Source: Planctomycetota bacterium (GTDB lineage Bacteria > Planctomycetota > GCA-002687715 > CAIWVZ01). Taken from it: 64,000 nt of DNA. Every line of letters starts with the position of its first letter. The first letter of the stretch is position 1. Shown piece after piece: positions 62,971 through 63,489 of this stretch. The DNA lies in the NCBI GenBank assembly GCA_044222185.1, contig JBGANV010000002.1, positions 282,061 to 346,060 of the forward strand, written 5' to 3'. The notes below the pieces were generated by a model, which ran no database searches, was not told where the DNA came from, and saw nothing but the letters and a program-made list of their open reading frames with translations. The translations under genes and the position numbers were made by a program.

Positions 62971-63489
62971 TCAGCCGCAGCTGAAGGCCGCACACGGCAT
63001 GGTCGCGTTCGGGACGGGAACGCACGCCGCGCCGATGCAGAGGTGCGTCGTCTTGCCGGGTGCGCACGTGACTCCGGAGTCCGTCGCGGTGATCGTGCAG
63101 CTCCCCTGCCCGGCCGTTCCGCAGTCCAGGATCGTCGCGTTCGGGTCACACGAGCTCGGCTCGTTCGAGGTGGTGCAGAACTTCACGTACTTCTCGTTGT
63201 TGCAACCACTCGATGGACACGTCTGCTGCGTGTAGGGGCACGGTCCGCACGAACGCGTGTTCTTGTTGCAGTACGAGCCGCGCTGCATCCAGGACGTGCA
63301 GCTCTCGTTGCCTGGCCAGCACTGCTTGTACACGAGCGTCAAGCCGCCTCCGGCGACCTGCCCGCCGATGATCCCGCCGAGCGACAGACCGTCCTTCGAA
63401 TCCGGGCCGCTCTCCGGTGCGCCATTCATCAGGCCAAGAACGCCCGAAATGACCAACGCCGCACTCGCGACGAACTTGATGGAATTCAT
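62971..63489 (-). CDS. Small Sec-secreted cysteine-rich protein (16 Cys in ~145 mature residues) with a Gly-rich N-terminal segment
   Basis: GGAGGA ribosome-binding site, then MNSIKFVASAALVISGVLGLMNGAPESG. The mature region begins DSKDGLSLGGIIGGQVAGGGLTLVYKQCWPGNESCTSW...CGPCPY...CPSSGCNN... and ends ...MPCAAFSCG. It is the first gene of the co-oriented minus-strand cluster and sits downstream of a 430-bp non-coding region. Confidence 0.5.
   Translation of the reverse strand: MNSIKFVASAALVISGVLGLMNGAPESGPDSKDGLSLGGIIGGQVAGGGLTLVYKQCWPGNESCTSWMQRGSYCNKNTRSCGPCPYTQQTCPSSGCNNEKYVKFCTTSNEPSSCDPNATILDCGTAGQGSCTITATDSGVTCAPGKTTHLCIGAACVPVPNATMPCAAFSCG

Follow-up and report, generated by a model that had tools for sequence, protein, structure and literature searches.

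A predicted exported 16-cysteine protein of a very rare family and its conserved gene cassette with a putative MauE-thioredoxin-like oxidase in a Planctomycetota bacterium

A 64,000-nt stretch of DNA from a Planctomycetota bacterium (contig JBGANV010000002.1, positions 282,061 to 346,060; the window) was analysed around the gene of a small cysteine-rich protein, designated gene A. Gene A is the first of five genes, A, B, C, D and E, which follow one another in this order on the minus strand with operon-like gaps of 100, 46, 14 and -4 nt, and a convergent aldehyde dehydrogenase gene follows gene E. Gene A (62971..63489, minus strand, stop codon included) encodes the 172-amino acid (aa) precursor of a putatively exported protein with 16 Cys. 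Translation starts with the ATG at 63489 and ends with the stop codon at 62971-62973. A Shine-Dalgarno sequence, GGAGG (63495..63499, minus strand), was seen on inspection 5 nt 5' of the ATG, and the GC content at third codon positions (GC3) of gene A is 0.86, compared with 0.81-0.84 in the adjoining genes. The same 172-aa product was obtained by an independent gene call on Logan contig L001, which is identical to the window over 7,538 nt. Because of this ribosome binding site, the GC3 value and the independent gene call, gene A is a real gene, and a chance open reading frame (ORF) was rejected. A longer reading of 194 aa initiated at GTG was also rejected, as it has no Shine-Dalgarno support and the homologues begin at the Met equivalent to that of the shorter product.

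The first 23 residues (63421..63489, minus strand) consist of an n-region, MNSIK, and an h-region, FVASAALVISGVLGL, and were the sole segment of the product to exceed the hydropathy threshold for a transmembrane (TM) helix in the hydropathy scans. A comparable hydrophobic N-terminus was present in all of the homologues in the alignment. The product is therefore predicted to be exported through the Sec pathway. Neither a lipobox nor a twin-arginine (RR) motif was found in it, and for these reasons a lipoprotein and a Tat substrate were both rejected. An original prediction, made from the sequence of the window, had spoken of a canonical Sec signal; the n- and h-regions fit this description, but a textbook A-x-A cleavage site is absent. 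The cleavage site was placed by inspection and not by a prediction tool. Sites with small residues at -3 and -1 were recognized in this way at aligned positions, VLG/L in the window protein, ALA/G in the homologue P0002 and GLA/H in the homologue P0003, the slash marking the putative cut. The N-terminus could instead be an uncleaved signal-anchor, with the following linker as a flexible stalk that tethers the Cys-rich domain outside the inner membrane in a complex with the products of genes B, C and D. The missing A-x-A site of the window protein would agree with this, as would the hydropathy of B, C and D, all of which appear to be membrane-anchored envelope proteins, and the stalk-like differences in linker composition and length among the homologues. 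However, the aligned small-residue sites are plausible cut sites, an h-region of 15-16 residues is typical of cleaved signals, and a conserved IGG motif in the linker, described below, would lack an explanation in a plain stalk. We consider such an anchor quite improbable.

All 16 Cys of the gene A product lie within residues 57-171 (62977..63321, minus strand), a domain of 115 aa in which up to eight disulfides could form, and the chain stops one residue past the last Cys. The number of Cys and the peptide strings quoted in the original prediction were all present. The domain is rich in Thr, Ser, Gly and Pro and poor in His, and no internal repeat was detected in it (z at most 1.55). It contains one C-x-x-C and no other CxxC or CxC repeats of the metal-cluster type. 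This density of Cys is approached by no other ORF of the window, except a spurious antisense ORF over the DNA of gene A.

Relatives of the gene A product were found to be extremely scarce. A word-indexed search of 5.8 billion proteins returned a single match, P0001, a 99% identical copy. When 1.84 billion cluster representatives were scanned in full with HMMER, P0002 (35% identity, E 7.5e-13) and P0003 (32% identity, E 9.8e-4) were recovered as well, and a profile search added P0006, the copy carried by MAG034, the metagenome-assembled genome of 'Bacteria sp. RBC034'. The family thus comprises four clusters at 90% identity in about 5.8 billion proteins. Pattern scans of genomes, metagenomes and viral contigs gave one extra genomic locus beyond the protein clusters; the pattern was absent from the viral contigs and JGI metagenome contigs scanned. 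A locus of a 99% identical relative is located at 168-686 of L002 (Logan SRR14932592). No match to the family was found in NCBIfam, in PADLOC, in the PDB by sequence profile, or in plasmids and phages by tblastn, and the only Pfam match of gene A, to Disaggr_repeat, was weak and sub-threshold (E 0.027). Judged by these searches, gene A founds a very rare, unnamed protein family. The suggestion of a new family in the original prediction was thereby borne out, with four clusters and no counterpart among the families of Pfam, NCBIfam and the PDB.

A common plan was recognized in all four clusters, in which a short and variable linker joins a hydrophobic N-terminus to a part with exactly 16 Cys, and in each of them the protein ends one residue past the last Cys. 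P0002, P0006 and P0003, with 32-36% identity to the window protein, each have their 16 Cys after the signal. The spacing, C-5/6-C-9-C-6-C-2-C-5/6-C-4/6-C-8-C-7/8-C-8/9-C-7-C-10/11-C-7/8/16-C-4-C-8..10-C-4/5-C-x, is near-identical across the family. The Cys pattern is not due to chance, since homologues as diverged as these retain all 16 residues in nearly the same arrangement. Between the gene A members of contigs L003 and L008, which are the closest diverged ones, dN/dS was 0.29 and every Cys was kept. P0001 differs from the window protein only by E26A and K32I, both located in the linker or pro-region and neither in the Cys-rich domain. The view of gene A as a real gene for an exported, cysteine-rich protein is supported by these comparisons.

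The original prediction had further proposed a knottin- or antimicrobial-peptide-like fold, which, like a defensin fold, found no backing. Knottins, defensins and the insect beta-helical antifreeze proteins with their eight disulfides combine a high density of Cys with a Thr/Ser/Gly-rich composition, and in this they recall the gene A product. However, its domain has 16 Cys in 115 aa and not 6-8 Cys in 30-50 aa, it has neither the 12-residue TCT-type repeat of the antifreeze proteins nor any other internal repeat, and no Pfam or PDB match was obtained. No curated profile or solved structure of such a short core was matched by the gene A product in Pfam, NCBIfam, PADLOC or the PDB, dedicated knottin and bacteriocin databases not being covered. 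An AlphaFold2 (AF2) model of the product built with the four-sequence alignment was unusable (pLDDT 29.8), and for this reason no fold search was made with it.

The cysteines are probably engaged in disulfides rather than present as free thiols. Binding of metal by these residues, in the manner of a metallothionein or a copper-storage protein, would be in keeping with the very high density of 16 Cys in 115 residues. Against it stand the export signal, an oxidase-type MauE/CxxC protein encoded in the same cassette, the even number and rigid spacing of the Cys together with the Thr/Ser/Gly/Pro-rich, His-poor composition, all of them typical of domains stabilised by disulfides, and the absence of CxxC and CxC metal-cluster repeats save for the single C-x-x-C. 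Metal binding is accordingly regarded as very improbable.

The neighbourhood of gene A proved to be conserved as well. Contig L008 (CADEGH010000041.1) of MAG034, a genome unrelated to that of the window, was the only other genome locus found; all five genes stand there in the same order, with identities to the window proteins of 35% for A, 26% for B, 32% for C, 33% for D and 29% for E. The GC content is 63% in L008 and 68% at the window locus, and the flanks are unrelated, with RDD, SpoIIM, DUF58 and MoxR genes upstream in the window genome and DUF2459 in MAG034. In L003 an orthologue of gene B directly follows the gene A homologue before the contig ends. In L007 the 300 nt that follow the gene A homologue contain the beginning of a gene with a similar membrane anchor and a start rich in Pro, Ser and Thr. 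Because ordered orthologues occur in MAG034 between unrelated flanks, and gene B follows gene A in L003, the sequence comparison indicates that the unit of conservation is the whole cassette and not the small gene alone.

Gene E, the last gene of the cassette, had escaped the original prediction, and it is probably the gene from which most can be learnt about the locus. It encodes a MauE-type membrane protein of 279 aa with a C-terminal thioredoxin-like domain (56818..57657, minus strand) and overlaps gene D by 4 nt. The Pfam profile PF07291 (MauE) matched the window protein with E 5.7e-5 and 23.9 bits over profile positions 8-127 of 128, and its L008 orthologue with E 3.9e-4 and 21.2 bits over positions 3-124 of 128. 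Residues 103-107 (57337..57351, minus strand) read CGCFG, the CXC active-site motif of MauE, in a loop before TM4 which is predicted to be periplasmic; this motif is invariant between the window and L008 proteins, which are 29% identical overall. Past the fifth hydrophobic helix there is a tail of ~110 residues with CEHC at residues 195-198 (57064..57075, minus strand), the CxxC of the thioredoxin-like domain, and with a downstream PPP, both likewise invariant in L008. By hydropathy and charge, the CGC loop and the CEHC tail are each predicted to lie outside the cytoplasm.

MauE can replace DsbB in E. coli, and its active site, located in the loop that joins TM3 and TM4 on the periplasmic side, is a CXC motif, in most cases CGC, with Phe-Gly after it (bioRxiv 10.64898/2026.03.05.709764). 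Fusions to thioredoxin-family domains account for 8.2% of MauE entries, and 9.3% of VKOR entries are fused (bioRxiv 10.64898/2026.03.05.709764). The six disulfides in methylamine dehydrogenase's small subunit need both MauE and MauD (bioRxiv 10.64898/2026.03.05.709764). Gene E is thus likely, from its motifs and layout, to encode a fused DsbB/DsbA-like oxidase with the gene A protein as its dedicated substrate. That the gene E protein acts on the gene A protein is suggested by their conserved co-location in two genomes.

On the reading that we favour, the product of gene A is a disulfide-rich protein exported by Sec, the member of a new and very rare family, which is likely matured by the MauE-thioredoxin-like oxidase of gene E and probably acts together with the three co-conserved envelope proteins B, C and D. 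We give this reading, taken as a whole, slightly better than an even chance. The gene A product would first cross the inner membrane through Sec, and the CEHC domain of the gene E protein would then oxidise its 16 cysteines. The CGC loop of the MauE module would in turn re-oxidise CEHC and hand the electrons on to quinone. The MauE module would correspond to DsbB and the CxxC domain to DsbA or MauD. The mature part would be a compact domain of ~115 residues with up to eight disulfide bonds. Once folded, it would act with B, C and D in the envelope or outside the cell; B would serve as a large beta-sandwich protein, C as a membrane protein with periplasmic C39-like and DUF1573-type Ig domains, and D as a periplasmic protein anchored by its C-terminus.

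Several points count against this reading. The co-location was found in two genomes only, a small sample, and the contigs of the other gene A members stop before genes C-E. Both MauE scores of gene E, 23.9 and 21.2 bits, miss the gathering score of 27. For the thioredoxin-like tail no Pfam match was obtained even at E 10. Its best PDB profile matches, the thioredoxin 2l6c (E 0.32) and the ERdj5 Trx domain (E 1.1), are aligned on the CxxC and in this speak for the reading, but they are non-significant. The c-region of gene A is without a textbook A-x-A site, and export and signal cleavage are predictions from the sequence. No fold or disulfide pairing could be taken from the gene A model, given its pLDDT of 29.8. 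Finally, the reading covers the maturation of the gene A product and assigns no activity to it.

The segment between the signal and the Cys-rich domain bears on a different proposal, that of a second processing step after Sec export. Residues 30-50 (63340..63402, minus strand) form a Gly-rich segment, DSKDGLSLGGIIGGQVAGGGL, with a mean hydropathy of 1.1-1.4 over 19 aa, which is below the TM level. In the alignments its core, LGGIIGG at residues 37-43 (63361..63381, minus strand), follows the pattern (I/L)xx(I/V)xGG and is a candidate site for the removal of a propeptide by a cut after G43. The linker as a whole is variable save for A-P near the end of the signal and L-x-x-[IV]-I-G-G, and the latter was found in three of the four clusters, the window protein having LGGIIGG, P0002 LAQVIGG and P0006 LDQVIGG. 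The corresponding region of P0003, LSAITGFGG, is off-pattern; L37 and G42 are invariant in all four. The core pattern occurs at a frequency of 2.3e-4 per residue in the ORFs of the window, which gives an expectation of 0.007 in 30 aa. The original prediction had named LSLGG and IIGG as possible sites of such a step. IIGG does lie within the conserved motif, whereas LSLGG is not conserved, nor is the QVAGGG part of the Gly-rich segment, in place of which the homologues have an acidic, Pro-rich linker.

A transmembrane or pore-forming helix of the glycine-zipper type in GLSLGGIIGGQVAGGGLTLVY was considered on account of its GxxxG-like spacing and its hydrophobicity of 1.1-1.4 over 19 aa. This value is below the TM threshold that was applied to all other helices of the cassette, no Pfam glycine-zipper match was obtained, and in its place P0002 and P0006 have the acidic, Pro-rich EFADPEPIEPVPATY, while P0003 has DDDATKGE. 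On hydropathy, Pfam and homologue sequences the helix was rejected, as a notion with next to no probability.

The published consensus of double-glycine leaders is M(R/K)ELX3E(I/L)X2(I/V)XG(G/A) (PMC3140520), and the family motif fits its positions -7, -4, -2 and -1. The distal part of the consensus was not matched on inspection, position -8 being Ser or Lys and positions -12 and -15 being Lys/Gly and Pro. Moreover, the GG at residues 42-43 sits behind a hydrophobic h-region of 16 residues, whereas double-glycine leaders form the extreme N-terminus, measure 15-30 aa and are hydrophilic or amphipathic without a hydrophobic core of the Sec type. If signal peptidase cuts at the aligned small-residue sites, a propeptide of 21-25 residues ending in GG would be left, which is the size of a double-glycine leader.

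The candidate protease for such a cut is the product of gene C (58826..60451, minus strand), a protein of 541 aa in which the gene call, hydropathy and charge delineate TM1, a C39-like domain, TM2, TM3 and DUF1573-like Ig-type domains. The DUF1573 matches had E 0.017 in the window and 4.2e-5 in the L008 orthologue. The C39-like domain, residues 45-180 (59912..60319, minus strand), has C57, H136 and D152 as candidate catalytic residues. The original prediction had noted a C39-like gene 2.5 kb away from gene A. The distance is correct, with 2520 nt from the 3' end of gene A (62971) to the start of gene C (60451), but the label is sub-threshold: Pfam PF03412 matched gene C with E 0.023 and 15 bits (cut-off 22) over profile positions 10-105 of 133, the alignment beginning just before QDC57G. 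By phmmer no match to gene C was found among the C39 chains of the PDB, and none was found in NCBIfam. Comparison of gene C with two PDB ComA peptidase domains by hhalign gave a probability of 1.8%, and the only local alignment placed AH136F...FD152PP of gene C on H96...D112 of ComA. A single-sequence AF2 model of residues 40-190 was of low confidence (pLDDT 44.6, pTM 0.42). The 14 best PDB matches of this low-confidence model in Foldseek were all C39 domains, those of PCAT1, LahT and ComA, with probabilities of 0.82-0.97, E values of 5e-3 to 0.12 and TM-scores of about 0.4. Gene C is thus probably C39-like at the level of the modelled fold, while its assignment to the family is unproven. It nevertheless belongs to the same conserved cassette as gene A, and in this respect the association drawn by the original prediction stands.

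Four Arg precede TM1 of gene C, and a loop of four residues, RHLR, joins TM2 and TM3. On hydropathy and the positive-inside rule, a periplasmic location is predicted for the C39-like domain (39-187) as well as for the DUF1573-type domains (226-541). This is the side of a Sec-exported substrate, on which a post-Sec cut would have to occur. The peptidase domains of PCAT exporters are cytoplasmic, on the opposite side to that predicted for gene C.

The MAG034 cassette (L008 12575-14366) was informative with regard to gene C. Homology covers only residues 120-436 of gene C there, and the ORF starts about 18 codons before the homology block and overlaps the end of gene B by 23 nt. With so short a start, TM1 and the Cys-bearing half of the C39-like domain are missing, while the His and Asp are kept. 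Residues 437-541 of gene C and 1-132 of gene D are also lacking, and the homology blocks of C and D abut at L008 13575-13576 in different frames. A run of N is present in L008 ~500 nt upstream, inside gene B. The condensed form of the cassette could be due to a deletion or a frameshift, to fusion of C with D, or to an artefact of the assembly. In the same genome gene A has VIGG and the full set of 16 Cys, and the dN/dS of 0.29 shows it to be under purifying selection. A truncated C39-like domain beside an intact gene A would mean that cleavage is non-essential, that another protease carries it out there, or that the cassette or its assembly is damaged. No further relatives of gene C were found, the protein search returning gene C alone and the metagenome scan and the plasmid tblastn returning none.

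From these observations a route can be drawn in which the gene A product is exported by Sec, its signal is cut, and the membrane-tethered, periplasmic C39-like domain of gene C (39-187) then removes a GG propeptide of 21-25 residues at G43, to free a disulfide-rich effector resembling a bacteriocin or toxin. The persistence of L-x-x-[IV]-I-G-G in an otherwise variable linker, its rarity by chance and its fit to the proximal consensus speak for this, as do the position of a C39-like gene in the conserved cassette, the predicted periplasmic side of the domain, its candidate Cys, His and Asp, and the Foldseek matches to PCAT1, LahT and ComA. On the other hand, C39 membership was significant in no test and the fold search used a low-confidence model; gene C of MAG034 has neither TM1 nor the half with the catalytic Cys, yet gene A is intact there; ITGFGG of P0003 is off at -4 and -7; and the Glu at -8 and the hydrophobic residues at -12 and -15 of the consensus have no match, while Pro and Gly would break the leader helix. 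The cassette also lacks an ABC exporter and an immunity-like gene; no ABC transporter domain was found in genes A-E, nor in the scanned ORFs of the window between 41371 and 56643. Antimicrobial activity is pure conjecture. We know of no precedent for a double-glycine propeptide behind a Sec signal, and literature searches gave nothing relevant on such a precedent or on bacteriocin clusters with C39, VKOR or MauE. The one real argument for the route is the conserved motif taken together with the periplasmic side of the domain, and the one real argument against it is the truncated domain of MAG034; we regard the route as an unlikely but live alternative. Somewhat less likely is a previously undescribed two-step route which joins it to oxidative folding, with Sec export, periplasmic removal of the GG propeptide by a membrane-tethered, non-ABC C39-like peptidase and folding by the MauE-thioredoxin protein. 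Its product would have eight disulfides and a new fold and would serve as a toxin, a bacteriocin-like factor or an inhibitor. A cut after IIGG by the putative protease of gene C is possible, but the preferred reading, maturation of the gene A protein by gene E, does not require it.

The likeness to the double-glycine systems processed by C39 peptidases is confined to a few features. Class II bacteriocins and the ComC/ComA, PCAT1 and LahT systems share with gene A the pattern (I/L)xx(I/V)xGG before the mature part, and the signals for gene C in sequence and fold, each weak, all point to C39. In contrast to the known leaders, the motif of gene A stands behind a hydrophobic Sec-type signal and the distal consensus is absent, and its mature part of 115-130 aa with 16 Cys is much larger than typical class II peptides. 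Unlike the peptidase domains of the PCAT/AMS proteins, the gene C domain is not fused to an ABC transporter, is predicted to be periplasmic and not cytoplasmic, and is without its catalytic half in the MAG034 cassette.

The two remaining genes of the cassette encode larger envelope proteins. Gene B (60498..62870, minus strand), which begins 100 nt after gene A, encodes a protein of 790 aa that starts with a signal or anchor and contains beta-sandwich domains of the CarboxypepD_reg type (Pfam PF13620, E 1.1e-17); its orthologues follow the gene A homologue in both L003 and L008 (26% identity, E 5e-23). The gene D protein (57654..58811, minus strand; 385 aa) belongs to no known family; it bears a signal at its N-terminus and, at the C-terminal end, a TM helix with RRRR behind it, and part of it is orthologous in L008, where it is 33% identical. 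The layout of its C-terminus (…AWALGVVALCAGAFAVPRVVARRRRQAAGAAA) is reminiscent of C-terminal sorting signals, and no known sorting motif was recognised in it. At residue 240 gene D carries LGGIQGG (PILGGIQGGVARVV), a near-copy of LGGIIGG(QVAGG) of gene A; it is not conserved in the MAG034 orthologue and is therefore probably a coincidence.

No sigma-70-like promoter and no convincing terminator were found around the cassette, and the window contains no Rfam family and no tRNA. In the intergenic region of ~430 nt upstream of gene A there is a perfect inverted repeat of 9 bp, CGACGCGCA-gt-TGCGCGTCG, at 63785-63804, flanked by two direct copies of GTCGCGATCG (63768 and 63801) and with no Rfam match. 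The repeats at 63768-63810 could be an operator or the terminator hairpin of the upstream RDD-family gene. That gene belongs to a cluster, DUF4350 - MoxR AAA - DUF58 - SpoIIM/DUF8413 - RDD, which lies immediately upstream on the strand of the cassette (L001 3360-9568); only its last 79 nt are inside the window, the remainder being past 64000, and it is not kept beside the cassette in MAG034. On the plus strand a run of very large, apparently secreted proteins is encoded at 41371-53560: a 1212-aa product with a Peptidase_S9 domain, one of 450 aa that carries TIG/PKD domains, one of 1598 aa in which CarboxypepD_reg is repeated seven times, and a 921-aa product with Laminin_G_3 and esterase-like regions. 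Such a run points to an organism with many large proteins of the envelope or the extracellular space.

Among known systems the mau cluster offers a close analogy, in that a small exported protein with many disulfides is encoded together with MauE and a CxxC partner of thioredoxin fold (bioRxiv 10.64898/2026.03.05.709764). The cassette differs from it in that the MauE and CxxC domains are fused in one protein, and in that it has no dehydrogenase large subunit or other mau genes and has beta-sandwich and C39-like proteins instead. Gene A is also unrelated to MauA: a MauA-like cofactor protein was rejected, as there is no Pfam amine-dehydrogenase match and neither P0002 nor P0006 nor P0003 shares the two Trp of the window protein, leaving no conserved pair for TTQ. 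Like the DsbB-DsbA pair and the VKOR-thioredoxin fusions, gene E appears to combine a quinone-linked generator in the membrane with a periplasmic CxxC carrier. However, those systems serve general housekeeping, whereas the gene E fusion sits within a cassette that contains a substrate, which suggests a dedicated role. By analogy, the cassette would follow the logic of dedicated oxidative folding of the mau type, but with MauE and CxxC joined in a single protein, a substrate from a new family and a C39-like partner that is unusual in being periplasmic and non-ABC.

Since the family is extremely rare, with four clusters across the public data that were searched, comes from uncultured or poorly described bacteria and has no activity assigned, its general impact would be modest unless an activity is found. 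The locus also raises the possibility that double-glycine recognition of the C39 type has moved to the periplasmic side and been combined with Sec export. MauE has only recently been shown to be a DsbB-like disulfide generator. If the preferred reading is true, the cassette would be a compact, self-contained case of substrate-dedicated oxidative folding by MauE, and with a likely natural substrate encoded beside it, it would offer a direct test system for MauE-thioredoxin fusions.

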